64,000 nucleotides of DNA, taken from positions 476 to 64,475 of the forward strand of contig JAFDEK010000004.1 of assembly GCA_019310385.1 (NCBI GenBank). The letters run 5' to 3'. The notes beneath the pieces are model-generated. The model did not search any database. It had not been told where the DNA came from and saw nothing but the letters and a program-made list of their open reading frames with translations. How positions within the stretch are numbered: position 1 is the first letter of the stretch; each line of letters opens with the position of its first letter. Shown piece by piece: positions 17,721-60,417 of the stretch. A program made the translations under genes and the position numbers. This DNA comes from Deltaproteobacteria bacterium. Lineage in GTDB: Bacteria > Myxococcota_A > UBA9160 > UBA4427.

Positions 17721-17789
17721 GGCGGCCAAGATGCGTATCCTCGCCCGCCGCCGCGAGGCGGCAAGATGCGTATCCTCGCCCGCCGCCGC
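17721..17789 (+). repeat. hairpin-repeat array A1 (2 units of 35 bp; core GCGTATCCTCGCC + GCCGCC-GCGA-GGCGGC)
   Basis: Cores at 17733 and 17768. It lies between the divergent SDR (start 17603, minus) and ilvD (start 17894, plus). Confidence 0.9.
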
Positions 17790-17893
17790 TTCGCCCGGGC
17801 CCCTGGGGCGGGCTAAGCTTCCCGATCGGCCCCGCCACCCGGTCCCCGCGACCACTCCCACCGGCGTAGGTCTCACGGAGCAGGAATCCAGCC

Positions 17894-19576
17894 ATGACCC
17901 AGAAGCTCAACAAGTACAGCGCCCGCATCACCCAGGAGAAGGCCCAGGGGGCCTCCCAGGCCATGCTCTACGCGACTGGCCTCACCGATGCCGACATGGA
18001 CAAGGCCCAGGTGGGCATTTCGAGCGTCTGGTACGAAGGCAACTCCTGCAACATGCACCTGAACGACCTGGCCGCCAAGGTGAAGCAGGGCGTGGTGGCC
18101 GCGGATCTGGTGGGCATGCGTTTCAACACCATCGGGGTCTCCGATGGCATCTCCATGGGGACCCGGGGCATGAGCTACTCCCTGCAGTCCCGTGACCTCA
18201 TCGCCGACTCCATCGAGACGGTGATGTGCGCCCAGTGGTACGACGCCAACATTTCTCTGCCGGGCTGCGACAAGAACATGCCCGGGTGCCTGATGGCCAT
18301 GGCTCGGGTGAATCGTCCCGCGCTGATGGTCTACGGGGGAACGATCAAGCCCGGGACCAGTCGCTCGGGCGATCCCCTCGACGTCGTGTCGGCCTTTCAG
18401 TGCTATGGCGAGTTCCTGGCCGGGAACATCGACGAGGAGGAGCGCGGCCAGATCGTGCGACGCTCCTGCCCGGGGGCTGGGGCATGCGGGGGCATGTATA
18501 CGGCGAACACCATGGCGTGTGCGATCGAGGCGCTGGGGATGTCTCTGCCCTACAGCTCGTCGACTCCGGCCGAGGATCCGGGCAAGCTCGAAGAGTGCTT
18601 CCGGGCTGGCGAGGCGATCCGCATGCTGCTCGAGCGCGACATCAAGCCCAGTGACATCATGACGCGCGATGCCTTCGAGAACGCCATGGTGGTCGTGACG
18701 GTGCTCGGCGGATCGACCAACGCCGTTCTTCACCTCATCGCCATGGCGAAGGCCGTGGGGGTCGAGCTGGGGATCGAAGACTTCCAGAAGGTGAGCGACC
18801 GTACGCCCTTCCTGGGCGATCTGAAGCCCAGCGGGACCTACGTGATGGAGGACCTCCACAACGTGGGCGGAACGCCTGCGCTGATTCGCTACCTGCTCGA
18901 GCGGGGCGTGCTCCACGGCGACTGCCTCACGGTGACGGGCCAGACGCTGGCGGAAAACGTCGAGGGGCTTCCGGGCCTGAGTGAAGGGCAGAAGGTCATT
19001 CGCCCGTGGGACGACCCGATCCTCCCCAATGGCCACATCCAGATCCTGCGCGGCAATTTCGCGCCCGATGGCGCGGTGGCGAAGATCACCGGCAAGGAGG
19101 GGCTCAGCTTCTCCGGGCCCGCCCAGGTCTTCGACCAGGAAGAGGAGATGCTGGCCGCCGTCGAGCAGGGCAAGGTGAAGAAGGGCAACGTGATCGTGAT
19201 TCGTTACGAGGGGCCCAAGGGTGGGCCGGGCATGCCCGAGATGCTGACGCCGACCTCGGTCATCATGGGGGCCGGGCTCGGCCAGGACGTAGCGCTCATC
19301 ACCGACGGCCGCTTCTCGGGGGGCTCCCACGGCTTCATCATCGGCCACGTGACGCCCGAGGCCCAGGAGGGCGGCCCGATCGCCCTGGTGCAGGACGGCG
19401 ACCTGATCAGCATCGACGCCAAGACCCAATCCATCGAGGTGGACGTCAGCGACGACGAACTCGCCCGCCGCCGCGCCGCCTGGACCGCGCCCCCCCTACG
19501 CGCCACCCGAGGCACCCTCTACAAATATATCAAGACCGTAAAATCCGCCTCCGAAGGCTGCGTCACCGACGAATAA
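17894..19576 (+). CDS. ilvD: dihydroxy-acid dehydratase
   Basis: 560 aa. [14 protein letters not shown]..., CDKNMPG, ...[21 protein letters not shown] are all IlvD hallmarks. Confidence 0.95.
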
Positions 19577-22641: not shown

Positions 22642-23328
22642 GTGATGCGAGCGGACACGAGAGGCGAAGAGCCGGCCGCAAAGGGCGGCGCCAAGGGTCT
22701 CGTGGATCAGAGCGGTCGCGTGCTGGGACCGCGCGCCCAGGAGACCCGCCAACGACTGCTCGACGCCACTTCTTCGCTGCTCGCCGAGCAGAGTCTGCGC
22801 GAGCTGCGCGTGATCGACATCGCGCGCAAGATCGGCGCGGCGCCCGCGACCTTCTACCAGTACTTCAAGGACGTGGAGGGCGCGGTTCTCACTCTCGCGG
22901 ATCAGGCCAGCGACGAGATGCCGGCGGTGATCACGCTGATCGAGGGGGACTGGGAGGGCGAGGCAGGAATGGAGCGGGCGCGTAGCGTCGTCGACGTCTT
23001 CATCGCCCACTGGGACGCCTATCACGCCATCCTGCGCGTGCGCAACCTGGCCGCCGACGAGGGCGATGTCCGCTTCCGGGCGGTGCGTGCCCGGGCCATG
23101 CGGCCCGTCATCGCGGCCCTCGCGAGTCGCGTCGCGGCCGCGCAGGCGGCAGGGAAGCTGCGCAGCGGCGATCATCCCCACGCTGCCGCGGCCGCCATGG
23201 CGGCCATCCTCGAGCGCCTCGCCGCCTACCACCGGGAGCTCGAAGTATTCGGAGTGACCCGGGAGGACCTGGTCGAAACCTCGGCCCATATTCTCTACCG
23301 CACGCTGACGGGTGAGAGCGCTCCCTGA
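22642..23328 (+). CDS. TetR/AcrR family transcriptional regulator
   Basis: GGAGG RBS. TRQRLLDATSSLLAEQSLRELRVIDIARKIGAAPATFYQYFKDVE is a TetR-type HTH. Confidence 0.85.
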   Translation: MMRADTRGEEPAAKGGAKGLVDQSGRVLGPRAQETRQRLLDATSSLLAEQSLRELRVIDIARKIGAAPATFYQYFKDVEGAVLTLADQASDEMPAVITLIEGDWEGEAGMERARSVVDVFIAHWDAYHAILRVRNLAADEGDVRFRAVRARAMRPVIAALASRVAAAQAAGKLRSGDHPHAAAAAMAAILERLAAYHRELEVFGVTREDLVETSAHILYRTLTGESAP

Positions 23329-23400
23329 CGGCGGGCACCCCGAAGCCGAGGCCCGCGAGGGCTCGAAACACGTCTCTTCGCCGGAGCCCGAGAGCGCCCC

Positions 23401-25116
23401 ATGACTGAGAAGCCCGTTCGCATCCTTCCCCTGGTCAATGACGAGAACCGTCACTTCTGGGAGGGCGGCGCCGAGGGCGAGCTGCGCTTCCTCTGCTGCG
23501 ACGCCTGCAGCTACTACGTGCACCCTCCCGCGCCGGTGTGCCCGGAGTGCCTCGGCCGCGAGCTCTCGCCTCGAGCGGTCTCGGGTCGGGGAGTGGTGCA
23601 CACCTACACGGTGAACCACCAGCCGTGGATCCCGGGCTTCGATCCCCCCTACGTGGTCGCGATCGTCGAGCTGGAGGATCAGCCCGGCCTGCGTCTTACC
23701 ACGAACCTCAGCCACTGCGAGATCGACGCGGTCTCCATCGGCATGCCGGTGCAGGTCTGCTTCGAAGAGATCGCCGACGACCTGTACCTTCCTCTCTTCG
23801 AGCCCGCCGCTGGCGCCTTCGAGCCCGCCGCTGGCGCCTTTGAGCCCGCCGCTGGCGCCGATTCCCCGCTGCCCTCCGCGCGGCTGCACCGCCCGACGCC
23901 GCCAAAGAGCGCGCGGGGCATGCACGCGGGGCTCGAGGGCAAGGCGGCCCTGACGGGCATCGGGCAGTCCCAGGTGGGACGGCGCCTCAATCGCGACCCC
24001 ATGGAGCTGACCATCGACGCCTGCCTCGAAGCCATCGCGGACGCCGGGCTGCGCCGCGAGGACATCGATGGGCTCTCCACCTACCCCGGTAGCGGGATCA
24101 CAGGCGCGCCGGGCTTCACCGGCGCCGGAGTCGTCGAGGTGCAGGACGCCCTGCGCCTCGAGCTGAACTGGTTCTGCGGCGGGCCGGAGCTGCCGGGTCA
24201 GCTCGGCTCGGTGATCAACGCCTGTGCGGCCGTGGCGACAGGCCTCGCCCGTCACGTGCTCTGCTTCCGAACGGTCTGGGAATCGACAGCCCAGGGTGGC
24301 GGTCGCCGGGCTGGGATCGGCGCAGGCGGCGGCGGGCGCTTCCGGGCCAGCGGCAACATGCAGTGGACCCTGCCCTTCGGCGCGGCCTCGGCCGCGGTGT
24401 GGATCGCCATGATGGCGCGCCGACACTTTCACGAGTACGGAACGACCCGGGAACAGATGGCGCAGATCGCCCTCAATGCGCGCCGCAACGCGGGGCTCAA
24501 CCCCAAGGCGATCTATCGCGACCCCATGAGTCTCGCTGACTACATGGACGTGCGCATGATTTCGACGCCCTTCTGCCTCTACGACTGCGATGCGCCCGTG
24601 GACGGCTCCACGGCGGTGATCGTGTCGGCCGTCGATGCCGCGCGGGATCTGCGCAGGCCGCCGCTGCGGGTCGAGGCCGTGGGCTCGGCGATCCACGGCC
24701 GGCCTTCCTGGGATCAGTGGGACGACCTCACCACCATGGCGCTGCGCGACGCCGGCGCCATGCTCTGGCGACGTACGGCCCTGGGGCCCGCGGACGTGGA
24801 TGTCGCCGAGCTCTACGACGGCTTCAGCTTCATCACCATGGCGTGGCTCGAAGCTCTGGGCTTCTGCGGCCAGGGCGAGAGCGGCGATTTCATCGCGGAC
24901 GGAAAGCGCATCGCCCTCGACGGGGAGCTGCCGCTCAACACCCACGGCGGCCAGCTCTCGGCCGGCCGCCTTCACGGCTACGGCTTCCTCCACGAGGCCT
25001 GCGTGCAGCTCTGGGGCGAGGGCGGGGAGCGCCAGGTGGGCGGGGATCCGCGGGTCGCCGTCGCGGCCGCGGGCGGCGGGCCCCTGGGCGGCTGCCTGCT
25101 GCTCTCGCGTTCCTGA
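23401..25116 (+). CDS. fusion of DUF35 (Zn-ribbon/OB-fold) domain with a thiolase-like (SCP-x/lipid-transfer type) domain
   Basis: The N-terminal ~130 aa has FWEG...LRFLCCDAC.YYVHPPAPVCPECLG...G.V.TYT (DUF35). A (FEPAAGA)x3 linker follows. Then comes the thiolase fold (...GLSTYPG..., ...PLNTHGGQLS.G..HG...). Confidence 0.85.
   Translation: MTEKPVRILPLVNDENRHFWEGGAEGELRFLCCDACSYYVHPPAPVCPECLGRELSPRAVSGRGVVHTYTVNHQPWIPGFDPPYVVAIVELEDQPGLRLTTNLSHCEIDAVSIGMPVQVCFEEIADDLYLPLFEPAAGAFEPAAGAFEPAAGADSPLPSARLHRPTPPKSARGMHAGLEGKAALTGIGQSQVGRRLNRDPMELTIDACLEAIADAGLRREDIDGLSTYPGSGITGAPGFTGAGVVEVQDALRLELNWFCGGPELPGQLGSVINACAAVATGLARHVLCFRTVWESTAQGGGRRAGIGAGGGGRFRASGNMQWTLPFGAASAAVWIAMMARRHFHEYGTTREQMAQIALNARRNAGLNPKAIYRDPMSLADYMDVRMISTPFCLYDCDAPVDGSTAVIVSAVDAARDLRRPPLRVEAVGSAIHGRPSWDQWDDLTTMALRDAGAMLWRRTALGPADVDVAELYDGFSFITMAWLEALGFCGQGESGDFIADGKRIALDGELPLNTHGGQLSAGRLHGYGFLHEACVQLWGEGGERQVGGDPRVAVAAAGGGPLGGCLLLSRS
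23797..23859 (+). repeat. 21-bp coding tandem repeat x3 (FEPAAGA) forming the inter-domain linker
   Basis: ttcgagcccgccgctggcgcc repeated three times with one substitution. Confidence 0.9.
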
Positions 25117-25131
25117 GGCCCCTCTCTTCGA

Positions 25132-30798: not shown

Positions 30799-30820
30799 TG
30801 CTGTCCCCTATCCTGGCCCT

Positions 30821-30896
30821 CCGCCATGAGGCGGCAAGATGCGTATCCTCGCCCGCCGCCGCGAGGCGGCAAGATGCGTATCTTCGCCCGCTGCCG
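30821..30896 (+). repeat. hairpin-repeat array A2 (2 units of 35 bp), near-identical to A1
   Basis: Cores at 30841 and 30876 (the second is GCGTATCTTCGCC). It lies between the divergent PPIase (start 30798, minus) and SDR (start 30999, plus). Confidence 0.9.
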
Positions 30897-33177: not shown

Positions 33178-34017
33178 GTGTGGGCCGAGGCTGCTCCCGA
33201 GATCGTTGGAATCTTGAACTGCAGTGAGGATTCCTTCTCGGACGGGGGGCTCTACCTGCAGCCCGAGCGGGCTCTCGAGCACGCGCGGCGCCTCCACGCC
33301 GACGGCGCCCGCTACGTCGAGCTGGGCCCCGCCTCGAGCCACCCCGACGCGAAAGAGGTGAGCGCGAGCGAGGAGATCCGCCGTCTCGAGCCCCTGGTGG
33401 AGGCCCTGGCGCGCGAAGGGATCGCCACCGGGGTGGACAGCTTCCGGCTCGAGACTCAGCGCTGGTGCCTCGAGCGGGGTGTCGCGCTGCTGAACGACAT
33501 CGACGGCTTCGCCGAGCCGCAGCTCTGGCCCCAGCTCGCGCGGGCATCCTGCCGCCTGGTCGTCATGCACTCGATCCAGGATCGCGGTCGTGCCACCCGG
33601 GCGCCCGGCGATCCCGATACCGTGCTCGAGCGGATCGAGTCCTTCTTCGCGGAGCGGCTGGCGGGCCTCGAGGCCGCCGGCGTCGCTCGGGACCGGCTGA
33701 TCCTCGACCCGGGCATGGGTTTCTTCCTGGGCGTAAAGCCCGACTCCTCCCTGGCGGTCCTGCGCGGCCTGGGCCGACTGCGCGAGCGCTTCGGGCTCCC
33801 GCTGCTGGTGTCCGTGTCGCGCAAGTCCTTCCTCGGCGGCCTGCTCGCCGGCCCCGAGAGCGGCGAGTCGCGGGCAGTCGCCGAGCGTGGTGCCGGGACC
33901 CTGGCGGCCGAGCTCTGGCTGGCGCAGTGCGGCGTGGAGTGGATCCGCACCCACGACGTCCGGGCGTTGAGCGACGCGCTACGCGTGCTCCGCGCCGTGG
34001 AAGGGCCGCCGCCGTGA
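33178..34017 (+). CDS. folP: dihydropteroate synthase
   Basis: GILNCSEDSFSDGG, ...DPGMGFF..., ...SVSRKSF... are DHPS signatures. GTG start. Confidence 0.9.
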   Translation: MWAEAAPEIVGILNCSEDSFSDGGLYLQPERALEHARRLHADGARYVELGPASSHPDAKEVSASEEIRRLEPLVEALAREGIATGVDSFRLETQRWCLERGVALLNDIDGFAEPQLWPQLARASCRLVVMHSIQDRGRATRAPGDPDTVLERIESFFAERLAGLEAAGVARDRLILDPGMGFFLGVKPDSSLAVLRGLGRLRERFGLPLLVSVSRKSFLGGLLAGPESGESRAVAERGAGTLAAELWLAQCGVEWIRTHDVRALSDALRVLRAVEGPPP

Positions 34018-34085
34018 GGCGGCCCTGCGTATCCTCGCCGCCGCCGTGAGGCCGCCATTGCGTATCCTCGCCGCCGCGGTGAGCG
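34005..34085 (+). repeat. hairpin-repeat array B (about 2.5 units of 33 bp; loop GTGA)
   Basis: Cores at 34027 and 34060. The first hairpin GCCGCC-GTGA-GGCGGC contains the folP stop codon. Confidence 0.9.
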
Positions 34086-34138
34086 TTTTCGCTTCGGGGC
34101 GCGGATTTCTGGTAGATTGAGCGCAAGGGGGAGATCCC

Positions 34139-43214: not shown

Positions 43215-43295
43215 CCGCCTTCTCTCCGGCCCCCCGGGTTTGGCTAATGTCTTTTTGATTCGGTGGGTTACATTCCCACCCGGAACTCTGCCGCC

Positions 43296-45326
43296 ATGTA
43301 TACCGCGTTTTACGGGCTTCGCGAGAAGCCTTTCTCCCTGAGCCCCGACCCCCGTTTTCTGTACCTCGCGGACTCTCACCGTGAGGCGCTCGCGCATCTC
43401 TTGTACGGAATCGACCAGGGCGAAGGCTTCATGGCGATCACCGGTGAGGTGGGGACCGGGAAGACCACCATCTGCCGCACCCTGCTCGAGCGGCTCGGGT
43501 CCGGGACCGAGGTCGCCTTTCTCTTCAACCCCAGCCGCTCGGCCGCGGAGCTGCTGCAGTCCATCGCGGTCGAGTTCGGACTCAGTGGCGGCGGTCAGAG
43601 CCGCCACGAGCTCAACGATCAGCTGAATCGCTTCCTGCTCCGCAAGCGGAGCGAAGGCAACAAGGTGTTGCTGATCGTCGACGAGGCGCAGAACCTCGGG
43701 TCCGACACCCTCGAGGAGATCCGGCTGCTCTCCAATCTCGAGACCTCGACCTCGAAGTTGATCCAGATTCTGCTCCTCGGACAGCCGGAGCTCGACCGCA
43801 AGCTGGACTCGGACGAGCTGCGGCAGCTGCGCCAGCGCATCAGCGTGCGCTGGAACCTCGCTCCCCTGTCGCGGCGGGAGACCGCCGATTACGTGCGTCA
43901 CCGCTTGAAGGTGGCGGCCGGCGCCGAGCGCGAGATCTTCGACGCCGGCGCCCTCGAGGAGATCCACCGGCGCAGCCGGGGCATCCCGCGGCTCGTCAAC
44001 GTCTTGTGTGACCGCAGCTTGCTCGCCGGCTATGCGGACGGAGTACACGGAATCGGGGCGAAGCTCGTGAAGCGGGCCGCGCGGGAGATCCCCGACACGA
44101 CATCGCGTCAGCGCGCACGATCGCCGCGCACTGCTTCGAGGCGCCGGGCCGGCCTCGCGGCCGGGGTCGTCGCGGCTGCGCTGCTGGCGGGCTTCATCGT
44201 CGGCGAGCGAGCGGGGCTCTTGAGCGAGGCGGCGGTATGGAGCCACGAGACCGTGGGCGAGAGCCGCTTCATGGGCATGCTGACGCGCTCCGGTGCGCAA
44301 AGCGACGAGCCCGTCGACCCGGGCGCGCCTGGTGAGCAACAGGGAATGGGCGGCCCGGGGATGGGCGGCCCGGATGTGCGACTACTCGAGGCGGTCGATG
44401 CCGCGGCGGTCCACGTGCCGGTCTCGTCGCCTCCTCCCCTGCAGGCCGCGCTGCAGCCGGATTCCATACCCTCGGTTCAGGAGGCCGTGGGCAGTCGGGG
44501 TGAGCGGCTGCTCAACACCCAGCCCGGGAGCTTCCTCGGGCGGATGCTGGACGCTCAGGGTGTCGCGTCGGCGCGCCTCCATGCCGTGAACGCGATTCTC
44601 GACTCCTACGGGCTCGAGGGCATCGACTCTGCGCCGGAATCCGACGAGGAGGCGCTGGCGATCTTCAGCGATCGCGGCTTCGGCCTGCTGACTCTGACCA
44701 CGCCCGACCTCGCCGCCCTCCGCGCCCTCGATCACCCCGCTCTTCTCGTGCTGCGCAGCGAGCTCGACGATTGGCGCCTCGTGGCTCTGCGCGGCCTGGA
44801 CGCGGACCTGGGGCTCATCGTCGGAGCCAACGGAGAGAACGAGCTGCGCGTGCCGGTGAGCGAGCTCGAGCTGCAGTGGGAGGGAGAGGCCTGGGTGGTG
44901 TGGGATGCCGTAGAAGGCCTTCCCGGGATGCTGACCCTGGGTGACGAGGGCGGCGGCGTGGCGTGGCTGCAGGGCGCCCTGACGGAGCTCGGTTACTACC
45001 CCGGCGAGGCTTCGGGCTTCTTCGATGGTTCGACCCGTGCCGGCGTGATGGCGCTGCAGCTGGATCGCGGCCTCACGCCGGATGGAGTCGTCGGGCCCCG
45101 CACCCAGATGGTCATCTACGCACTCATCGATCGCTACGGAGTGCCGCGCCTGACGATCGCGAGCGAGGATACGCTTGGCACCCTGTCGGGTGCCGGCGAG
45201 GATACGCTGGGCGATATCCGCGAGGACAGGCCGATCACCCTTCCGGCTGTCGGCGCGGATCTCGAGAGCGATTTCGAGGGCTCGGAGGCGGAGCCTCCCC
45301 TCTCGGCGGAGGATGGATCGCGATGA
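43296..45326 (+). CDS. gspA: GspA/ExeA-like AAA ATPase with TM segment and C-terminal peptidoglycan-binding domain
   Basis: MYTAFYGLREKPF, Walker A ITGEVGTGKTT, Walker B LLIVDEAQNL. PG_binding_1-like LQGALTELGYYPGEASGFFDGSTRAGVMALQLDRGLTPDGVVGPRT. Confidence 0.85.
   Translation: MYTAFYGLREKPFSLSPDPRFLYLADSHREALAHLLYGIDQGEGFMAITGEVGTGKTTICRTLLERLGSGTEVAFLFNPSRSAAELLQSIAVEFGLSGGGQSRHELNDQLNRFLLRKRSEGNKVLLIVDEAQNLGSDTLEEIRLLSNLETSTSKLIQILLLGQPELDRKLDSDELRQLRQRISVRWNLAPLSRRETADYVRHRLKVAAGAEREIFDAGALEEIHRRSRGIPRLVNVLCDRSLLAGYADGVHGIGAKLVKRAAREIPDTTSRQRARSPRTASRRRAGLAAGVVAAALLAGFIVGERAGLLSEAAVWSHETVGESRFMGMLTRSGAQSDEPVDPGAPGEQQGMGGPGMGGPDVRLLEAVDAAAVHVPVSSPPPLQAALQPDSIPSVQEAVGSRGERLLNTQPGSFLGRMLDAQGVASARLHAVNAILDSYGLEGIDSAPESDEEALAIFSDRGFGLLTLTTPDLAALRALDHPALLVLRSELDDWRLVALRGLDADLGLIVGANGENELRVPVSELELQWEGEAWVVWDAVEGLPGMLTLGDEGGGVAWLQGALTELGYYPGEASGFFDGSTRAGVMALQLDRGLTPDGVVGPRTQMVIYALIDRYGVPRLTIASEDTLGTLSGAGEDTLGDIREDRPITLPAVGADLESDFEGSEAEPPLSAEDGSR
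45163..45207 (-). repeat. hairpin-repeat array E (2 cores, 33-bp unit, reverse orientation) inside the gspA 3' coding region
   Basis: Read on the minus strand: GCGTATCCTCGCC-GGCACCC-GACA-GGGTGCC-AA-GCGTATCCTCGCT. On the plus strand it is in frame and encodes EDTLGTLSGAGEDTLG. Confidence 0.85.
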
Positions 45327-46237
45327 GCACCATCCTCAAGGCCCTTCGCCGCCTCGAAGACGACGAGGCCAGCCAGCGGGAGGAGCAGCGGACAGAGCTG
45401 CGCGAGCATCTGGTGAGCGATCCCCCGGCCGCGCAGCCGCGGCGTGTGCGCACCCTGGCGTGGCTGCTCGCGATCCCCGCGGCCGGGCTCATGGGGGCTC
45501 TGGTGGCCTCTCTGCTGCTTCCGGTGTTGCTGGGTCGCGATCTTCCGGACGCCTCTCCGGCGCCCGGTGCGGATGTGGCCTCGGTGTCGCCGGAACCCAC
45601 GCAGGGGGTCGACACCGCTTCGCCAGAGCCTGCAGCGTCCGCGCCACAACCCGCGCCACAGCCCACGCCGAGCGAAGGCGTCTCCCCTGCGGCGCTCGCG
45701 GCGACCGGCAGGGCCGACCCGCCCGGCTCCGCCGCGGTCGAGCGCGAACCCGCGACCTCGCTCGCCAGTGTCACGAGCGTCACGCTGCCCCAGCCCGCAA
45801 GGGCTGCAAGCGTATCCTCGCCAGAGCCCGCAAGGGCTGCAAGCGTATCCTCGCCAGAGCCCGCAAGGGCTGCAAGCGTATCCTCGCCAACGTCCGAGCC
45901 CACGGAGCTGCCGCCGGTGGCGGCCGCGTCACGCCCATCGACGCAGACGCGCGAGCGAGTCGTGCCACCCCTCGAGATCGAGATCAGCGACGACGTCGCG
46001 GTCATCGAACGCAATCCCGTGCCCGCGGTGCTGGTGACCCAGACCATCTGGCATCCCCGGGCCGAGCGGCGGGTTGCGGTGATCGAGCGTCTCGACGTGT
46101 CGGAGGGCTCGCAGCCTCTGCGCATGCGCGAGGGAGACCGGGTGGGCTCCCTGCAGCTCGTCTCCATCGAGCCCACCGGAGTGGTCTTCGTCCACAACGG
46201 CAGCGAGCTGCGTCGCCGCGTCGGCGATCGGCCCTGA
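45323..46237 (+). CDS. gspB: GspB/ExeB-like protein
   Basis: The ATG overlaps the gspA stop (ATGA). N-terminal MSTILKALRRLEDDE is like the GspB MSYILDALRK motif. One TM segment, a Pro/Ala-rich linker, and a C-terminal ...LRMREGDRVGSLQLVSIEPTGVVF... domain. Confidence 0.65.
   Translation: MSTILKALRRLEDDEASQREEQRTELREHLVSDPPAAQPRRVRTLAWLLAIPAAGLMGALVASLLLPVLLGRDLPDASPAPGADVASVSPEPTQGVDTASPEPAASAPQPAPQPTPSEGVSPAALAATGRADPPGSAAVEREPATSLASVTSVTLPQPARAASVSSPEPARAASVSSPEPARAASVSSPTSEPTELPPVAAASRPSTQTRERVVPPLEIEISDDVAVIERNPVPAVLVTQTIWHPRAERRVAVIERLDVSEGSQPLRMREGDRVGSLQLVSIEPTGVVFVHNGSELRRRVGDRP
45791..45888 (+). repeat. hairpin-repeat array C (3 units of 33 bp; AGCCC-GCAA-GGGCT) in frame inside gspB
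   Basis: Cores at 45810, 45843 and 45876. The array encodes (PARAASVSSPE)x3 in the linker. Confidence 0.9.
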
Positions 46238-46255
46238 TCCGGGTCGTAACGCGAT

Positions 46256-47161
46256 TCAGCGGACGGAGACGGTTCCGTTCGACGTTCGTAGCTTGATGGG
46301 CGGACCGCCGCGGCCGAGCCTGCCACGGACGTGACCGCCGGAGGCGACGTTCTCGCCGCTGAGCTCGCGGCTGTTCCGGATGACGCCGTTCTCGACCCGG
46401 ATGTCGACGTCGCCGTTTGCCTCTTCGGGCAGCTCGAGGATGATGCGGCCGTTGCTGGTCGCCAGCCGCACGCCCTCGCGTGAGATTTCCTTGAGCGCTG
46501 CTCGAATCATCCCGTTGGACGTCGAGGCATCGACGGAGCCGCAGTGGTCGCCCAGCTCGATCTTGCCGTTGCTCGAGCGGGCGACGAGACGGCCGCAGGT
46601 ATTGCTGCAGCGCACCTTGGCGTTGGCGGTGATGACCTGGACGTCGCCGATGACGTCACGCACGCTCACCGAGCCGTTGCTGGAGCGCGCCCGGACCGTG
46701 CCGCGAATCCCCTCCAGACACATGCGCCCGTTCGCTGAGGTGACCTCGACCCGCATGTCGGTGGGGATGCGGATGCTGAGGTTCACTCTCCCGTGCCGGT
46801 TCCACTTCTTGGGAATATCGACATCGAGCTCGAGATGGTCGCCGCTCCATCGGTTGTGGAGCTTCATCTCGTCGATCATGCTCTGGGCGGCCGCCTTCGA
46901 CTCGGCGCGGGACGACTTGTGGGCGCGGATCTCGATGTTCTCGCGCTCCTCCCCGACGATATTGCTGCGACCATTGGCGTTGTGGATGAGGACCGCGGCG
47001 CCGCGAGGAACGGGCAGCTCGAGAAGCTCCTCTTCCTCGGCGGACTCGCTCCAGGGGATGCCCGCCATGAGGCTGCGCAGCAGACCGCCCAGGCGCCCGG
47101 TGTTGCGGGTGCTTCGGTCTTCGTCCTCTTCACCGAACAGGCCCAGGGTCAAGCCCTCCAC
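46256..47161 (-). CDS. DUF4097-type beta-strand repeat protein (putative adhesin fold)
   Basis: It has repeated ...SSNGSVSV.., ..SSNGKIEL.., ..TSNGMIRA.., ..TSNGRIIL.., ..TSNGTVSV.. strands. The start is uncertain: the ORF opens at 47308 but overlaps the rhomboid gene by 53 nt, so GTG 47161 is used here. Confidence 0.65.
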   Translation of the reverse strand: MEGLTLGLFGEEDEDRSTRNTGRLGGLLRSLMAGIPWSESAEEEELLELPVPRGAAVLIHNANGRSNIVGEERENIEIRAHKSSRAESKAAAQSMIDEMKLHNRWSGDHLELDVDIPKKWNRHGRVNLSIRIPTDMRVEVTSANGRMCLEGIRGTVRARSSNGSVSVRDVIGDVQVITANAKVRCSNTCGRLVARSSNGKIELGDHCGSVDASTSNGMIRAALKEISREGVRLATSNGRIILELPEEANGDVDIRVENGVIRNSRELSGENVASGGHVRGRLGRGGPPIKLRTSNGTVSVR

Positions 47162-47255
47162 CGACGCCGCGTGGATCTGCGGGCGTCGTTCCTGCGTGCA
47201 TCGGGCGGCAAGTGGTTCGGCATCACGATCGCACCGTCCGCGAAGGCGGTCGTGC

Positions 47256-48014
47256 TCAGTGGAACCGGCGGTCGTTGTCGCGTTTCTGTCGTTCGCGGCG
47301 CTCTTCATCGTGCACCGCGCGCAACTTCTGACGCATCTGGTGGCGCTTCCACTTCAGCTTGAGGCTCTCGATGGTCGGGGCGCCGGGCGTCCGCCCTTCC
47401 CGCACGAGATAGATCCAGCCCACCACGACGCCGCCGAGGTGTCCGAGGTGGCTGACGTTGTTCGGCCCCGAGCTCAGCTCCATGAAGAGAAGGAAGGGAA
47501 TGAGCCAGATCGCCTTCAGGGGAATCGGCGGGAAGAGGAGCTGGATGGTGCGGTTGGGCCAGGTGAACGAGTAGGCGAGCAGTACGCCCATCACTGCACC
47601 GGAGGCGCCCAGGGTCGGGACCCCGAGATGCGGATGGTAGCTCGATCCCATGATGTAGGGCAGGAAGGGAAGCGTGGCGATCAGGACCCCGGCGCCGACT
47701 CCGCAGACGAGGTAGAAGCGCAGGAAGCGCTGCTCGCCCCAGGCGAGGGCCAGTGTGGAGCCGAACATCCAGAGCGCGAACATGTTGAAGATGATGTGGA
47801 GCGGCGAGCTCGGGCTGTGGAGCCACATGTAGGTGAAGGGGCGCCAGAGCTCGAAGCCCAACCACACTCGCTCGGGCGAAACCACGCCGTAGTTGGTCAC
47901 CGCGCCGGACACCTGCTGCCCCAGAAAGACAACGATATTGGCGATGATGATGCTCTTGATGACCTGGGGCGTAACGGGCGGACCGAAGCCGATCTGGTTG
48001 CCACGACCGTTCAC
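47256..48014 (-). CDS. rhomboid family intramembrane serine protease
   Basis: WRPFTYMWLH, catalytic GASGAVMGV, HLGHLGG. Confidence 0.9.
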   Translation of the reverse strand: MNGRGNQIGFGPPVTPQVIKSIIIANIVVFLGQQVSGAVTNYGVVSPERVWLGFELWRPFTYMWLHSPSSPLHIIFNMFALWMFGSTLALAWGEQRFLRFYLVCGVGAGVLIATLPFLPYIMGSSYHPHLGVPTLGASGAVMGVLLAYSFTWPNRTIQLLFPPIPLKAIWLIPFLLFMELSSGPNNVSHLGHLGGVVVGWIYLVREGRTPGAPTIESLKLKWKRHQMRQKLRAVHDEERRERQKRDNDRRFH

Positions 48015-48081
48015 GATGTGAGACTCCTCGGGGCGCTGATTCTACTCTTGCCTGCGGCGCACGGCGGCCCCGCGATCAAAA

Positions 48082-48110
48082 AAGCTAGGGATCTTCGATA
48101 CTTCAGTCAA
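48082..48110 (-). promoter_or_regulatory. sigma-70-like promoter for the rhomboid operon (TTGACT-17 nt-TAGCTT on the minus strand)
   Basis: The -35 is at 48110-48105 and the -10 at 48087-48082, with 17-nt spacing. It sits in an AT-rich patch about 70 nt upstream of the start at 48014. Confidence 0.35.
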
Positions 48111-48147
48111 CTTTGCCGGCCCCGCCTGGCGACATCCGGCTCATCGA

Positions 48148-48669
48148 TCACCCCAGGCGCCCCGCACGGCGCGCGGCGTGGAGCAGGGCCAGGCAGCTCT
48201 TGGCGTCGTCGATGGCTCCCGACCAGACCCACTCGAGGGCCTGGTCGAGGGGCGTGGGGACGATTTCGATCACCTCGTCGTCATCGGGTCGCCGGGGGAC
48301 CGGGCTGAGGTCGTAGGCGGCGAAGAGGTGGATGCGTTCGTCGGTGAAGCCCGGCGTAGTGAGAATGGAGCCGAGGGTCTCGATGCGGCCGGCCCGCTGC
48401 CCGGCCTCCTCCTCGAGCTCCCGCGCGGCACACAGTGCAGGCTCTTCGCCGCCCTCGAGCTTGCCCGCCGGCACCTCGTAGATTTCGCCGCCGACCGCAT
48501 AGCGGTATTGCCGGATCAGCAGCACCTCGTCGTCGCTGAGGAAGGGCACCACCGCCGAGGCGCCCGGGTGGCGGATCACGTCGAGGGTGGCGCGGTGGCC
48601 GTTGGGGAGGTCGACCTCCTCGGTCACCACCTCGATGAACGCGCCTCGGTAGATCTGCCGCTCTGCCAT
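48148..48669 (-). CDS. NUDIX hydrolase (ADP-ribose pyrophosphatase-like)
   Basis: An internal ATG at 48669 gives MAERQIYRG... Nudix box GKLEGGEEPALCAARELEEEAG. The longer ORF to 48906 is read through the repeat array. Confidence 0.9.
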   Translation of the reverse strand: MAERQIYRGAFIEVVTEEVDLPNGHRATLDVIRHPGASAVVPFLSDDEVLLIRQYRYAVGGEIYEVPAGKLEGGEEPALCAARELEEEAGQRAGRIETLGSILTTPGFTDERIHLFAAYDLSPVPRRPDDDEVIEIVPTPLDQALEWVWSGAIDDAKSCLALLHAARRAGRLG

Positions 48670-48720
48670 CCGGGGCTCCTGTCGGGCTCGGGGAGCGAGC
48701 AGGGTAGCCGTGGCCGGGCC

Positions 48721-48868
48721 GAGGCGGCAATCTTGGGGCCACACCCCTCGCCGGAGCCCGCGAGGGCTCGAAGAGCGTATCTTCGCCGGAGCCCGCGAGG
48801 GCTCGAAGAGCGTATCTTCGCCGGAGCCCGCGAGGGCTCGAAGAGCGTATCCTCGCCGGAGCCCGCCA
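48721..48868 (+). repeat. hairpin-repeat array D (degenerate unit + 3 units of 35 bp; GAGCCC-GCGA-GGGCTC)
   Basis: Cores at 48775, 48810 (both GCGTATCTTCGCC) and 48845. It lies between the divergent NUDIX (start 48669, minus) and hydrolase (ATG 48872, plus). Confidence 0.9.
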
Positions 48869-48871
48869 GAG

Positions 48872-49519
48872 ATGCCCGCAATGAAGCTCGAGCGCCCCGC
48901 CACCATCGCCCTGCCCGAAGGGGGCCGCGCTACCGGCTTGGCGCTGGAGGGCCTCTACCGGCCTGCCCATGACACGGATCGCGGCGGCGCCGTGATCGCT
49001 CCTCCCCATCCCCTCTATGGCGGCAGCATGGAGTCGCCGGTGGTGGGCGAGATGGCACACGGCTTCGAGCGCGCCGGCATCGCGACCCTGCGCTTCAACT
49101 GGCGCGGCGTGGGGGCGAGCGCAGGTGAGGTGAGCGGGGATCTCGCCGTCGGGCAGGAGGACTACCTGGCCGCGCTGGACTTTCTCGCGGACACGCTGCC
49201 GCCGCCCCTGATCGCCAGCGGCTACTCCTTCGGCGCCGCCGCGGCGCTGGCCGCGAGTGCGGGGCCCCTGGTTCGCCGTCTGGTTCTCGTCTCGCCTCCC
49301 CCGGCCCTGCTCGACCGTGATCGGCTGGCGGACTTTCACGGCAAGATCTTGATTGCCACCGGAGCGTGGGACGAGGTCGCGCCCGCCCGGGAGCTGGAGG
49401 GTCTCGAGGCACCCCATGCGGAGCTCGAGCTGCGGGTGCTCGAGGAGACGGACCATTTCTTCATGGGCGGGCCGGGGCTGCGCGAGCTCGCAGCGGCCCT
49501 CGTCGACTGGCTGGGCTGA
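48872..49519 (+). CDS. alpha/beta hydrolase (COG2945-like)
   Basis: AVIAPPHPLYGGSMESPVV and GYSFGA nucleophile elbow. The start may be ATG 48872 or 48881. Confidence 0.7.
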   Translation: MPAMKLERPATIALPEGGRATGLALEGLYRPAHDTDRGGAVIAPPHPLYGGSMESPVVGEMAHGFERAGIATLRFNWRGVGASAGEVSGDLAVGQEDYLAALDFLADTLPPPLIASGYSFGAAAALAASAGPLVRRLVLVSPPPALLDRDRLADFHGKILIATGAWDEVAPARELEGLEAPHAELELRVLEETDHFFMGGPGLRELAAALVDWLG

Positions 49520-57610: not shown

Positions 57611-57694
57611 GGAGCGACTTGCTACCGCGCGTTGGGCTGGCCTGTCAAGCGTGAGACGAGGCTCGATCCCCTCGATCCATGGCCTCTGCGCGTC

Positions 57695-60331
57695 TCAGAA
57701 GAAATCTTCGCGGATGATTCGCTGGGTATCGCCGGCCGTGCGGTGGTGGGTCGTGGTCTCGGTGGGCTCGGTGCCCTCGAGGAAGGGCTGGAAGTAGGCG
57801 TCCTCGGAGCCGTCGTCTGCGAGCAGGCCCGAGGCCCGGTCGATCCGCACCTTCACGATGTGCTCCGGCTCCTCGAAGTCCCGGATGGGTCGGCCCTGGA
57901 GCGCGGCCTCCATGTACTCGACCCAGATGGGCGCCGCCGCGCGGGAGCCCGTCTCGCCCCAGCCGAGAGGGATGTTGTCGTCGCGACCCACCCAGACGCC
58001 CGTCGCAATGCTGGGCGAGAAGCCCATGAACCAGGCGTCGTTCTGGTCGTTGGTGGTTCCCGTCTTGCCTGCCAGCGGCCGGCCCAGTTGACGCAGGCGC
58101 CAGCCCGTCCCGCGCGGATCCTGGACGACGGCCTGGAGGAGATCGCACATCAGGTAGGCGGCCTCTTCGGAGATGACCTGGTTTGCGACGGGGGCTTCAG
58201 CGCCGGGCAGCTCGGCGGTGTCGATCAGGAGCGCCGCGTCTTCGGGGTTGACGTCGTCGATGAGAACTTCGCTGGCGATCGTTTCTCCGGCCTCGGGCGC
58301 GGCCGCGTCTTCTTCTTGCGCCGCAGGCGCTGCACCCAGGCCCACGTCCTCGAGGAGAATCTGTCCATTGCGATCGGTGACCCGGGTGATGAAGCGCGGG
58401 ATCACCTTCACGCCCTTGTTGGGATAGATCGCGTAGGCGGCAGTGAGCTCGGCGAGACCCACGCTGCTCGAGCCCAGGGCCAGGGAGAGATCCCGACTCA
58501 GCGGCGCCGAGATGCCCATGCGTCGCGAGTAGTCGATCACGTAGTCGACGCCGACATCCCGGAAGAGATGAACCGTGGCGTTGTTTACCGAACGCACCAG
58601 AGCCTGGCGCATGGGCATGGGACCGTAGAAGTGACGGCCGTAATTCTGCGGGCGCCACACGAAGCCCGACACCGGGTCCTCGTAGACGGCGGGCCGGTCC
58701 CAGAGGGTCGAGACCGGCGTGTAGTTCTGCTCGAGGGCGGCTCCGTAGATGAAGGGCTTGAAGGAGGATCCCGGCTGGCGCAGAGCCTGGGTGGCGCGGT
58801 TGAATTCGCTGCGGTCGTAGTCGTAGCCGCCAACCAGGGCGCGCACCTCGCCGGTATCGACCTCCATGGAGAGCAGGGCGCCCTCGCCGATGGGCTCCTG
58901 GAAGATCGAAACCCGGGCCAGGGGGTGGGGAGCGGGCTCGGGCCGGGCCTCGGGGTCCAGCGGCGGCTCCGCCCTCTCGTCGGCGATCTGCTCCGGCTCT
59001 TCTTCGCCGGCGCCTTCCACCGGGACCAGCGGATCACCCTCGAGGCGCTCGAAGCGCACGACGTCGCCCACGGCGAAGATCTCTTCGATCTGCTTCACGG
59101 GTCGCGGACGGCGCTTCGGGTCGGGCTCGCGGGCCCAGCTGACGTCCTCGAGGCCGACCTGCCCTTCGATCCCCGGCGCGAACACGATCCGGGTCGTTTC
59201 CATCTCCGCGTCGACCCGCACCACGACGCCGAGCTTGGGCTCGTCGAGCGTGAGCGGCGGCCGGACCCCCGTCTCCTCGTCGGCCAGAAGTTCGTTCTCC
59301 TCGGCGAGTCGAGCGACCTCCGCGTCGATCTCCCCGGCCGCGACCTGGCGCACCGGGCCCCGGTAGCCCATTCGCTTGTCGAGGTCGCGCAGCCCCTTGT
59401 GAACGGCTTCCACGGCGACCTTCTGCAGCTCGATGTCGAGAGTGGTCTCCACTACCAGTCCGCCCTCGAGCACAATCTCTCCGCCGAGGTGGTCGAAGAG
59501 GTAGCGGCGCACCTCTTCGGTGAAGTAGCGCGCGGCGAGCGTGTCTTCGGACTCCGCGGTGGAGGTCAGCTCCGGAGGCGCGGCGAGGGACTCCTCATAG
59601 ACGGCCTCGTCGATGAAGCCCTCGGTCTTCATGCGTCCCAGTACGTAGCGGCGGCGTCTCTCGGCTGCCTCGGGATCGCGGAAGGGCGAGTAGGCCGAGG
59701 GACGTTGGGGCAGACCGGCGAGCAGGGCCGACTCCGAGACCGTGAGCTCGCCCGGGGGCTTGCCAAAGTAGGTCTCCGCTGCCTCTCCGATTCCCCAGGC
59801 GCCCGCGCCAAAGTAGATCTGGTTCAGATAGAGATAGAGAATCTCCCGCTTGGTGAAATGGCTCTCGATCCGCTTGGCGAGGACCATCTCGCGGATCTTG
59901 CGACTGAAGTTCCGTTCGGGGCTGAGCAGCAGCTGCTTGACGAGCTGCATGGTGATCGTGCTGGCGCCCTGCTTGATGCCGCGGGCGCGTACGTCCACCC
60001 AGGCGGCCCGGACGATGGAGACATAGTCGATACCCGCGTGCTGGAAGAAGGAGGCGTCCTCCGCGGCCACGAAGGCAAGAGGGGCGTACTCGGGAAGGGC
60101 CTCGAGGGGGGTCAGCTGGCGGCGCTCGTTGGCGAAGAGCGCGATGGGGGTTCCGTTGCGGTCCACCACTCGGCTCGCCAGGGCGGGCTCGTAGTCCTCG
60201 ACCCGCTCGAGGTCGGGCAGGTTGCGCAGGAAGCTGAAATAGACCGCGAACGCGCCCGCCCCGGCCCCGAAGGCCAGCAGGCAGACGAGCACGAGAAGTA
60301 TCCGGAACCCCCCAGACCGGATGAAAGCCAT
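57695..60331 (-). CDS. mrcA: penicillin-binding protein 1A (bifunctional transglycosylase/transpeptidase)
   Basis: EDASFFQHAGID, GASTITMQL, RKIREM (GT51). SSFKP, SVN, KTGTTND (transpeptidase). Confidence 0.95.
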   Translation of the reverse strand: MAFIRSGGFRILLVLVCLLAFGAGAGAFAVYFSFLRNLPDLERVEDYEPALASRVVDRNGTPIALFANERRQLTPLEALPEYAPLAFVAAEDASFFQHAGIDYVSIVRAAWVDVRARGIKQGASTITMQLVKQLLLSPERNFSRKIREMVLAKRIESHFTKREILYLYLNQIYFGAGAWGIGEAAETYFGKPPGELTVSESALLAGLPQRPSAYSPFRDPEAAERRRRYVLGRMKTEGFIDEAVYEESLAAPPELTSTAESEDTLAARYFTEEVRRYLFDHLGGEIVLEGGLVVETTLDIELQKVAVEAVHKGLRDLDKRMGYRGPVRQVAAGEIDAEVARLAEENELLADEETGVRPPLTLDEPKLGVVVRVDAEMETTRIVFAPGIEGQVGLEDVSWAREPDPKRRPRPVKQIEEIFAVGDVVRFERLEGDPLVPVEGAGEEEPEQIADERAEPPLDPEARPEPAPHPLARVSIFQEPIGEGALLSMEVDTGEVRALVGGYDYDRSEFNRATQALRQPGSSFKPFIYGAALEQNYTPVSTLWDRPAVYEDPVSGFVWRPQNYGRHFYGPMPMRQALVRSVNNATVHLFRDVGVDYVIDYSRRMGISAPLSRDLSLALGSSSVGLAELTAAYAIYPNKGVKVIPRFITRVTDRNGQILLEDVGLGAAPAAQEEDAAAPEAGETIASEVLIDDVNPEDAALLIDTAELPGAEAPVANQVISEEAAYLMCDLLQAVVQDPRGTGWRLRQLGRPLAGKTGTTNDQNDAWFMGFSPSIATGVWVGRDDNIPLGWGETGSRAAAPIWVEYMEAALQGRPIRDFEEPEHIVKVRIDRASGLLADDGSEDAYFQPFLEGTEPTETTTHHRTAGDTQRIIREDFF

Positions 60332-60366
60332 TCGAACTCCAGTACTTAGCGAAACCTAGCCGAGAG

Positions 60367-60417
60367 CCGCCGGTCGCCGTCAGGCGGCCAGGCGTATCCT
60401 CGCCGGTCGCCGTCAAC
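60367..60417 (+). repeat. hairpin-repeat locus F (1.5 units, 33 bp; GGTCGCC-GTCA-GGCGGCC with T-G wobble)
   Basis: Core at 60392-60404. GCCGGTCGCCGTCA is duplicated 33 bp apart. It lies between the divergent mrcA (start 60331, minus) and gshB (start 60614, plus). Confidence 0.8.

Follow-up and report, generated by a model that had tools for sequence, protein, structure and literature searches.

Tagged repetitive extragenic palindromic (REP) sequences, the closest described systems to the repeats reported here, occur as tens to thousands of dispersed copies, and bacterial repeat families are normally lineage-specific. Tagged REPs fall into GTAG and CGTC super-families drawn from 8 phyla, are sometimes intragenic, and favor inverted dimers, with head-to-tail dimers being rare (PMC3733652). 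REPs that come with a RAYT have a tagged stem-loop architecture (PMC2817692). Here, we analyzed a 64,000-nt stretch of DNA (the window) from contig JAFDEK010000004.1 (positions 476 to 64,475) of a Myxococcota assembly recorded as Deltaproteobacteria bacterium (GCA_019310385.1). A sequence-only reading of the window had singled out short arrays of a 13-nt core, GCGTATCCTCGCC, followed by a GC-rich hairpin. We found that these repeats form a real, non-random family whose invariant element is the core.

The core, allowing at most one mismatch, was found 17 times in the window, compared to 0.19 matches expected from 100 dinucleotide-preserving shuffles, none of which (0/100) reached 17. Fifteen of these matches fell within the seven array loci noted at first reading, in agreement with the 15 copies (at least 12/13 identical) claimed there; the other two, at 49716 and 54124, were isolated, intragenic and mismatched at one position, and are probably due to chance. 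A unit profile (nhmmer) run over the window detected 16 units at eight loci and no others, i.e., 8 loci per 64 kb, which we name by their position in kilobases (17.7k, 23.3k, 30.8k, 34.0k, 45.2k, 45.8k, 48.8k, and 60.4k). The sequence-only reading had thus listed seven loci correctly and missed the eighth (23345 to 23400) together with a decayed first core at 30.8k (30806 to 30818); two of its coordinates also needed adjusting, since the 45.2k array begins at 45162 and not 45163, and the 48.8k insertion spans 48741 to 48871. Tandem Repeats Finder reported repeats of period 35 at 17720 to 17789, 30809 to 30895, and 48748 to 48866 (the last with 3.4 copies), and of period 33 at 34005 to 34083 and 45792 to 45889 (the latter with 3.0 copies and 100% matches). 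The unit in this Myxococcota genome is built from the core, a GC-rich hairpin and a short linker, hairpin and linker together making up a spacer of 20 to 22 nt. Units were head-to-tail direct repeats in every array, those of each locus (8/8) lay on one strand, and neither inverted cores nor inverted unit ends were found in the window. The units of 17.7k and 30.8k were 97% identical over 62 nt, and a (G)AGCCC stem type was common to 23.3k, 45.8k, and 48.8k.

The window has a G+C content of 66 to 71% and no tRNA genes. The best named matches of its IlvD and ExeA-like proteins were records titled "MAG: Myxococcota / Deltaproteobacteria bacterium" and JGI metagenomes; an exact copy of the window IlvD was not found on record. 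Positions 43890 to 48377, which take in both the 45.2k and the 45.8k array, showed 0 mismatches to a second record (L076; JGI 3300033147 Ga0366744_1045391, also under an NCBI MAG label) that is not established as an independent assembly. Because L076 carries this identical stretch, the window sequence is not peculiar to its own record.

Judged from sequence comparison with relatives, units reach new chromosomal sites, as syntenic relatives hold empty ones. In L024, whose IlvD is 92% identical, both flanks of the 17.7k spacer were kept, with 29 unrelated nt and no core in place of the 65-nt array. Three further relatives (L079, L080, and L081) were syntenic with the window and shared its gene order from the acyl-CoA synthetase to the glutathione synthetase gene; no core with at most one mismatch was found in the 21 kb of each, against five loci in the counterpart stretch of the window. 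Their spacer between the NUDIX and hydrolase genes was 41 to 55 nt long and array-free, and because alignment of the hydrolase N-terminus makes the ATG at 48872 the orthologous start, the 48.8k array represents a 131-nt insertion directly upstream. The 60.4k unit was absent from the PBP1A/GshB spacer of the same three relatives, which retained the flanking ..GTAGCCGAG and ..GGGCTGCG.. sequences. The comparison of orthologous intergenic regions proposed by the sequence-only reading thereby uncovered presence/absence polymorphism at 17.7k, 48.8k, and 60.4k.

The arrays inside genes varied among relatives as well. In L077 (ExeA 75% identical), the 45.8k site was empty and the 45.2k array decayed. 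L078 (ExeA 68% identical, same metagenome) had the 45.2k array with the same stem, and at the 45.8k site it carried four 33-nt units, two of them decayed and followed by two perfect ones with a new stem; one decayed unit kept the window-type linker GGGCTGCAA. The entire ExeA tail that bears the 45.2k array was absent in the more distant L079 to L081. Copy number differed between apparently orthologous arrays with shared flanks (3 at 45.8k versus 4 in L078; 3 in L008/L047 versus 4 in L030; 5 in L017 versus 3 in L064; 3 in L029 versus 2 in L045), and decayed copies were seen at both array edges. Junctions, compared to the empty sites, revealed no consistent target-site duplication and no common target sequence. 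The empty sites and the unit differences among L024 and L077 to L081 show that arrays arrive, expand, decay, and are renewed, the core being restored exactly while the spacer drifts.

Restriction of the copies to a single contig, raised as a possibility at first reading, did not hold, as arrays were carried by L076, L078, and 70 loci elsewhere. We scanned GTDB (one genome per species; 185,579 representatives) for two exact cores 12 to 40 nt apart and obtained 23 loci (L001 to L023), all in metagenome-assembled genomes (MAGs) and none in an isolate, which reflects either uncultured hosts or a sampling effect. By record title, these loci were from Spirochaetota (9 loci in 7 MAGs), Anaerolineae/Chloroflexi (4), "Deltaproteobacteria" (4), Planctomycetaceae (1), Peptococcaceae (1), unclassified bacteria or proteobacteria (3), and an alphaproteobacterium (1). 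The alphaproteobacterial match (L014, 7375 to 7414) was rejected as a member of the family and attributed to chance, as it lies in an RTX-type calcium-binding repeat (GxGEDTL; ..GGEDTLVARMGEDTLIGG..) whose codons spell the reverse complement of the core. A search for cultured hosts with a GVSSP-repeat protein, a low-complexity query, gave no significant match. A metagenome scan contributed 47 further loci, bringing the total to 70, with G+C contents of 49% to 74% and at least five phyla represented. The constant block was always the 13-mer, and the spacer was fixed within an array and took more than 45 forms (0 to 38 nt) among arrays, with periods of 13, 15, 16, 18, 19, 22, 26, 27, 29, 30, 33, 35 to 37, and 43 to 51. 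At least two independent loci were present in each of five MAGs and in several metagenomes. Chance cannot yield one 13-mer with more than 45 spacers and multiple loci per genome.

The sequence-only reading had made the hairpin a defining part of the element. Elsewhere, the same 13-mer formed hairpin-free arrays with spacers of 0 to 6 nt (periods 13, 15, 16, 18, and 19), and longer spacers were usually hairpins (L003, L021, L039, L040, L045, and L075), short ones not. The hairpin is therefore not the defining part; the invariant, constrained element is the 13-nt core. Within the window, the stems and loops listed at first reading were all found as written. For 12 distinct tetraloop hairpins from the window and L078, picked by eye (not blind), 91.7% of the stem cells were paired, compared to 63.6% in shuffles; five of six stem pairs varied on both sides, and the signal was lost once the partner arm was slid. 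At one and the same site, AGCCC-GCAA-GGGCT in the window (45.8k) faced CACCC-GAAA-GGGTG in L078, i.e., two double (compensated) changes. Compensatory stem change, between loci and between the window and L078, was thus confirmed. Of the idea built on it at first reading, selection on the hairpin itself as RNA or single-stranded DNA, the part on a functional RNA was not borne out, selfish DNA being the better fit.

The loop pattern on the core strand was G-N-N-A. The earlier description of the loops as mostly GNRA held at five of the seven first-noted loci (GCGA, GTGA, or GCAA), the remaining loops, GACA and GTCA, being G-N-N-A only. In 22-nt metagenome units, the spacer was GCGNAGC, with A, C, G, and T all seen at N; this sequence is a known, very stable DNA mini-hairpin in which N alone is free (PMC13037366). 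Because the loops read G-N-N-A on the core strand, and because of this mini-hairpin, one strand is the relevant one, be it as DNA or as RNA. Standard folding scored most window arrays at z of about -2 to -5, the decayed 23.3k unit being unstructured (z = +0.3), and found no significant DNA structure in short-spacer arrays (periods 13 and 22), for which the standard parameters do not model GNA mini-hairpins. A promoter or intrinsic-terminator role was ruled out: the array hairpins were without a T-run, a terminator-like score came only from the native sequence ending the 34.0k array, and no promoter-like (sigma-70) site was found inside any array.

By Pfam, the roughly 50 open reading frames (ORFs) of the window were ordinary chromosomal genes, without a transposase, integrase, RAYT, or cas domain among them, so that the earlier statement that no RAYT or transposase is present still stands. 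The genes next to the arrays were unrelated housekeeping genes, and an all-against-all BLAST of the ORFs of L001 to L023 and the window, in search of a shared neighbor gene, gave only housekeeping families, with no protein family enriched in the flanks. Both coding arrays of the window (45.2k and 45.8k) have a period of 33 and keep the frame. Elsewhere, eleven in-frame arrays were found in identified proteins or ORFs, at Pfam domain edges or between domains: in the inter-domain linker of DXS, the N-terminus of ABC-F, the ATP-lid of a histidine kinase, the N-terminal region of Mfd, a loop of Mur ligase, linkers of hybrid kinases, and APH. Their periods were 15, 18, 30, 33, or 45, except in the Mur ligase, where the period is 26 and the net insertion 39 nt. 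The core translates as VSSP (sense) or GEDT (antisense).

According to crude gene calls, the other loci comprised 7 arrays between convergent genes, 8 between co-directional genes, 0 between divergent genes, and 18 within ORFs (12 sense and 6 antisense), with some arrays lying 0 to 2 nt from stop codons. The placement between divergent genes stressed at first reading is therefore correct for the window (17.7k, 30.8k, 48.8k, and 60.4k) and not a family trait. That the core always lies on the + strand did not generalize, as the core strand followed positive local GC skew at 18 and negative skew at 17 of 35 loci, showing no bias. This split also ruled out a lagging-strand (single-stranded DNA) orientation bias, as far as a weak test with 8-kb windows can.

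Among the four arrays between divergent genes, the 17.7k array (17721 to 17789, + strand) has two units of period 35 with cores at 17733 to 17745 and 17768 to 17780. It reads 3' arm GGCGGCC, AAGAT, core, CGCCGCC-GCGA-GGCGGC, AAGAT, core, and a partial 5' arm CGCCGCCGC, and it lies between an SDR gene (- strand, start 17603) and ilvD (+ strand, start 17894). The 30.8k array (30806 to 30896, + strand) has three units of period 35 with the hairpin GCCGCC-GCGA-GGCGGC; its cores are the decayed one (CCCTATCCTGGCC), a perfect one (30841 to 30853), and a C8T variant (30876 to 30888), and its neighbors are a PpiC/SurA-like gene (- strand, start 30798) and an SDR gene (+ strand, start 30999).

The 48.8k insertion (131 nt, + strand), whose extent was judged from the empty sites in relatives, lies between a NUDIX gene (- strand, start 48669) and an alpha/beta-hydrolase gene (+ strand, ATG 48872). 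Its parts are, in order, a core that is partial or decayed (ACACCCCTCGCC), three copies of GGAGCCC-GCGA-GGGCTC, GAAGA, and core (period 35; cores at 48775, 48810, and 48845, the first two C8T), and a partial unit GGAGCCCGCCAGAG. The C8T core, GCGTATCTTCGCC, pairs perfectly with the preceding linker (CGAAGA-GCGTA-TCTTCG at 48.8k, 48769 to 48822; AAGAT-GCGT-ATCTT at 30.8k, 30871 to 30888), which may be a second small hairpin per unit or a coincidence. Fold-back templating, in which the 3' arm of the stem is copied from local sequence, was rejected at 48.8k, where the empty site has no GGAGCCC-like sequence; the presence of the same unit type at 23.3k and 45.8k also counters it.

In the relatives, the hydrolase ATG immediately follows ..GGCAATCTGGTGCC, giving a leaderless look; in the window, the array lies in between, with a GGAG 10 nt before the ATG. 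Because the array splits the ATG from the upstream motif and supplies this GGAG, the hydrolase gene has probably gained a structured 5' leader and a Shine-Dalgarno sequence. The motif AGGGTAGCC (48701 to 48709) of the NUDIX/hydrolase spacer is shared by the window and L079 to L081, as is CTCCAGTACTTAGCGAAACCTAGCCGAG (60337 to 60364) of the PBP1A/GshB spacer, and both include GTAGCC. On the minus strand of the relatives, GGCTACCCT places a -10-like hexamer of the TAnnnT type some 8 nt from the NUDIX ATG, which suggests leaderless transcription.

The 60.4k locus (60372 to 60415, + strand), between the PBP1A gene (- strand, start 60331) and the glutathione synthetase gene (+ strand, 60614), is a single unit: GGTCGCC-GTCA-GGCGGCC, AG, the core (60392 to 60404), and an 11-nt repeat of GGTCGCCGTCA. 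Just 3' of it, an inverted repeat, GGTGTATGCTT ... AAGCATACAC (60420 to 60464), flanks the conserved CCCGGGGCTGCG; the relatives do not have the inverted repeat.

Two arrays lie between co-directional genes. At 23.3k (+ strand), between a TetR-family gene (+ strand, ending at 23328) and a thiolase-like gene (+ strand, ATG 23401), one decayed unit (nhmmer E = 2.4e-4; 82% identical to the 48.8k units) consists of the hairpin GAGGCCC-GCGA-GGGCTC (23348 to 23364), GAAACA, a core with three mismatches, ACGTCTCTTCGCC (23370 to 23382), and a partial 5' arm GGAGCCCG. Like the 48.8k array, this one ends at a distance of 10 to 14 nt upstream of an ATG, GGAG being supplied by the final partial unit. The 34.0k array (34005 to 34088, + strand) has two units of period 33 (GCCGCC-GTGA-GGCGGC; cores 34027 to 34039 and 34060 to 34072) between folP (+ strand) and the acyl-CoA synthetase gene (+ strand, 34139), upstream of the latter. 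The folP stop codon TGA (34015 to 34017) lies within the first hairpin loop of this array, and its last partial unit fuses with a terminator-like hairpin followed by TTTT (34067 to 34093).

The 45.2k array (45162 to 45207, - strand) has a perfect core at 45195 to 45207 and one with a single mismatch at 45162 to 45174, at period 33, separated by the hairpin GGCACCC-GACA-GGGTGCC. The array falls, in frame, within the C-terminal tail of an ExeA/GspA-like gene (43263 to 45326, + strand; AAA_22 and PG_binding_1 domains), where the antisense strand of the core encodes SEDTLGTLSGAGEDTLG. The C-terminus ..(E/D)G(S/P)(G/R)* of ExeA is kept in most of the relatives compared, and an extra tail of about 45 to 50 amino acids between VPRL and the end of ExeA is present in the window, L077, and L078. 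The 45.8k array (45791 to 45888, + strand) has three identical units of period 33 (AGCCC-GCAA-GGGCT, GCAA, core, AG), in frame in the Pro/Ala-rich linker of a GspB-like gene (45323 to 46237, + strand) and encoding PARAASVSSPE three times from the sense strand. The ExeA-like and GspB-like genes overlap by ATGA.

Other tandem repeats of the window are outside the family: one in the thiolase-like gene (23796 to 23859; 21-nt unit, 3 copies, 97% matches) and three with 18- to 19-nt units and 2.6 to 2.8 copies (3605 to 3654, 15981 to 16030, and 38123 to 38171). On metagenome contigs L066, L073, L051, L053, L049, L065, L036, L032, and L061, the arrays were embedded in a composite element approximately 95 nt long, (C)TAGGAGyyTGCGCGGC-GAAGCAA-core-GCAGA-GCCGCGCaCTCC-GTAGnT-core-CTAG, with the first core in the loop of a 12-bp stem and with CTAG bounds that frequently double as stop codons where genes converge. 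Beside the arrays in L037, L049, and L065, which belong to the same metagenome group, another hairpin repeat was seen, TGCRCGGTAGAGC-GNNA-GCTCTGCCG, with the loops GATA, GCCA, and GACA.

We read the arrays as non-autonomous, essentially selfish, REP-like "tag plus hairpin" repeats whose core is recognized by a putative trans-acting factor, a reading that we hold to be about evenly balanced between right and wrong. The unit is the 13-nt invariant tag plus a spacer that is constant per array and differs between arrays. Insertion and tandem amplification would require the tag to be intact, as the place that a sequence-specific factor, with its gene elsewhere in the genome, recognizes or cleaves; by analogy with RAYT and GTAG-tagged REPs, this factor might be a nuclease or a transposase that works on a single strand. 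The hairpin may be an accessory that aids the reaction or slippage and is not needed in every lineage. Effects on neighboring genes would be by-products, as with the array that is now the 5' leader of the hydrolase gene (48872). The copies seen within genes are only those that keep the frame, in disordered or loop regions. Insertions are tolerated only where harmless. Presence/absence differences among close relatives, varying copy numbers, and insertion in frame into unrelated housekeeping proteins are more easily reconciled with selfish DNA than with a regulatory role.

Several points weigh against this reading. No candidate enzyme was found in the window ORFs or, by Pfam, among 125 ORFs flanking other loci, and searches of IMG/VR viral contigs (two patterns) and PLSDB plasmids (synthetic multi-spacer query), as possible carriers between hosts, yielded no arrays. 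Terminal inverted repeats, a consistent target-site duplication and a common junction target were all lacking, as was the GC-skew bias expected of lagging-strand single-stranded DNA transposition (8-kb windows being a weak test). The 45.2k array has persisted from the ancestor of the window, L077 and L078, so not all copies are ephemeral. The cross-phylum matches, moreover, were all selected by containing the exact core twice. Finally, because the ends of mobile elements normally diverge between phyla, a tag identical at 13/13 positions in several phyla can hardly be accounted for unless the family spread horizontally very recently or a host factor is conserved. This 13/13 identity, left unexplained, is the main weakness of every reading.

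A tentative extension, less secure than the reading itself but with a substantial chance of being right, is that GCGTATCCTCGCC may be the recognition sequence of a widespread, sequence-specific machinery, either a new mobile-element enzyme or a conserved host factor, that seeds and amplifies arrays in chromosomes from at least five phyla. If so, the arrays would be a new class of prokaryotic mobile minisatellite, including in-frame insertions in essential proteins, and not a lineage-specific REP. For one exact 13-nt core to recur in Spirochaetota, Chloroflexota, Myxococcota, Planctomycetota, and a clostridial MAG, whatever recognizes it must be either highly mobile or highly conserved, and we know of no system of that kind. 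The arrays would also be natural examples of selfish DNA that adds peptides (GVSSP and GEDTP repeats) to DXS, Mfd, Mur ligase, ABC-F, and kinases, and that can rewire 5' leaders, since a gene that looks leaderless in relatives here has a 131-nt structured leader. In practice, they break short-read assemblies and are possible strain markers in MAG populations.

It is possible, though in our view unlikely, that the arrays are instead functional cis elements, i.e., binding platforms or structured leaders or trailers, as RNA or DNA, that tune expression or mRNA stability. The 13-mer would then be bound by a protein or RNA that is widely conserved: for example, a CsrA-like protein could bind the GGA in the complement GGCGAGGAUACGC, the core strand could mimic an anti-Shine-Dalgarno sequence (CCUC), or a DNA-binding protein could have its conserved site here, in the manner of ParB and parS. 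A conserved host partner is the easiest explanation of an exact 13-mer across phyla; the G-N-N-A/GNRA loops on one strand fit this idea, as do the many arrays that abut start or stop codons (the folP stop at 34.0k, the nearby ATGs at 23.3k and 48.8k, and the others close to stops), and hairpins of arrays lying 3' of a gene could shield its mRNA in the manner of REPs. However, close relatives with the same gene order differ in array presence, no function is common to the neighboring genes, and the contexts are mixed (divergent, convergent, co-directional, and coding). Because arrays inside genes are found in either orientation, the motif would not be confined to one transcript strand. The spacing, from 13 to 51 nt, is ill-suited to cooperative binding. 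Rfam gave no match even at E <= 1 to 5, and the arrays have neither a T-run behind their hairpins nor a sigma-70-like promoter.

We consider it improbable that the arrays are factor-free, slippage-prone minisatellites that spread by ectopic recombination or gene conversion, their sharing across phyla being due to rare horizontal transfer or to ascertainment. Slippage would account for copy-number variation between apparently orthologous arrays, for decayed copies at both array edges, and for arrays ending in a partial unit (m-X-m; at 60.4k, m is the 11-nt GGTCGCCGTCA). By a rough estimate, not computed on the data, any 13-mer could also be found by chance in a few tandem repeats in approximately 600 Gb. 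What slippage leaves unexplained is the first arrival at empty sites that have no core and the exact core beside a changing spacer and stem, and chance does not give one 13-mer more than 45 spacers together with several loci per genome in five MAGs and the window.

It is also quite improbable that we are dealing with an ordinary REP/REPIN family, mobilized by a RAYT (TnpA-REP) outside the window, with the 13-mer as a long REP "head". The unpaired tag, GC stem-loop, short tail, and density of loci do match tagged REPs (PMC3733652, PMC2817692), which may likewise be intragenic and occur in 8 phyla (PMC3733652). Against this, GTAG or GTGG lay beside the stem in 0/16 window units, nor was there a CGTC head; ..CCTCGCC(N0-2) comes before the stem and a linker of 2 to 6 nt after it, and the only GTAG was that of some metagenome units (GTAGAT, TGTAG), 2 nt 5' of the core. 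The units are head-to-tail only, with no inverted pairs of the REPIN or BIME kind (head-to-head or tail-to-tail) in the eight window loci, and the hairpin is dispensable in many arrays. A Y1 transposase (RAYT, PF01797) was found neither in the window ORFs nor among the top 25 Pfam families of the 125 flanking ORFs elsewhere. CGTC-tagged REPs, where Neisseria dRS3, RPE-4, and RPE-6 are classed, are likewise without an associated transposase (PMC3733652). They are defined by a terminal CGTC (TGTC, CCTC), an 8- to 9-bp stem starting with A/T, a 4- to 5-nt loop, and a CCA-like tail (PMC3733652); CCTC is in fact found within the core, 3 nt short of the end, but the other traits are unmatched, as the stems here are 5 to 7 bp, GC-rich, and without A/T first pairs, and the tails are AAGAT, CCCT, GCAA, GAAGA, AA, and AG.

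An assembly artefact, chimera, or CRISPR-like array is very hard to credit: many metagenome matches do lie at contig ends, all 23 GTDB matches are from MAGs, and a constant block superficially alternates with another block, but L076 repeats the window sequence (its independence as an assembly not being established), other arrays recur in records of different sources (L010 = L046, L022 = L048, L015 = L052 = L072, and L009 = L071), intragenic arrays keep the frame and fall between domains, L078 has related, non-identical arrays at the same site, and a CRISPR "spacer" here would be 13 nt and constant per array, with no cas genes in the window.

No Rfam match was obtained at gathering thresholds over the whole window, or at E <= 1 for 20 array-bearing loci, and a permissive search of window positions 45000 to 49000 gave only chance-level matches far below the gathering score. 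In the literature, the 13-mer, its complement, its RNA form, its 12-mers, and the encoded peptides appeared only in unrelated primers, and nothing relevant was found on interspersed hairpin repeats of myxobacteria. That the sequence-only reading did not recognize the family agrees with these searches, and the family is apparently undescribed so far. Compared to the sequences of E. coli 16S rRNA, tmRNA, RNase P RNA, and 4.5S RNA (complementarity), and of DnaA boxes, the IncP and R388 nic sites, and the GAAA tetraloop receptor, the core showed only 6- to 8-nt resemblances, which are leads and not tests.

Among classes of repeats, miniature inverted-repeat transposable elements differ in having terminal inverted repeats and a fixed target-site duplication, the 11-nt direct repeat at 60.4k being part of the unit. 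CRISPR arrays, which have constant repeats of 23 to 47 nt, unique spacers, and cas genes or a leader, differ as well, since here both blocks are constant within an array, the core is 13 nt, and there are 1 to 3 units and no cas domains. As a descriptive class, variable-number tandem repeat (VNTR) or minisatellite does apply, as head-to-tail copy number differs between related genomes. Like the VNTR families of mycobacterial MIRUs and cyanobacterial STRR, these are dispersed, short head-to-tail loci of variable copy number that are mostly intergenic. However, MIRU units are 40 to 100 bp and lineage-specific, STRR units are 7 nt, and in neither family is a constant core joined to a spacer or hairpin that changes with the locus, nor does either cross phyla. 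The ends of IS200/IS605, relaxase nic sites, and the G-R-N-A-loop hairpins beside the variable repeats of diversity-generating retroelements are enzyme targets made of a hairpin and an adjacent sequence; the R388 nic site, for instance, has a GAAA-loop hairpin followed by GCGTATTGTCT. The window units resemble these, and no more than resemble them, in having a GC stem, a G..A loop on one strand, and a nearby conserved single-stranded recognition sequence, but they are tandem and not single, no such enzyme is nearby, and the match (GCGTAT) spans only 6 nt and could be a coincidence.

Rickettsia palindromic elements have been described as selfish DNA inserted in frame into protein-coding genes. 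The arrays likewise add a tolerated peptide to unrelated housekeeping proteins (DXS, Mfd, Mur ligase, ABC-F, histidine kinases, and the ExeA-like and GspB-like proteins); the Rickettsia elements, however, are single, 100 to 150 bp long, and found in Rickettsia only, compared to units of 13 to 51 bp in arrays here. With tagged REPs, the repeats share a short, unpaired, conserved tag beside a GC-rich stem-loop with a short tail, dispersed copies of which some are intragenic, stems that vary between subfamilies yet stay paired, and tags common to several phyla. They differ in a 13-nt tag that is neither GTAG nor CGTC, in a strictly head-to-tail arrangement, in a hairpin that can be lacking (periods 13 to 19), and in an exact tag found in Spirochaetota, Chloroflexota, Myxococcota, Planctomycetota, and a Peptococcaceae MAG. 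On this comparison, the family is best filed as a new variety of tagged palindromic repeat.

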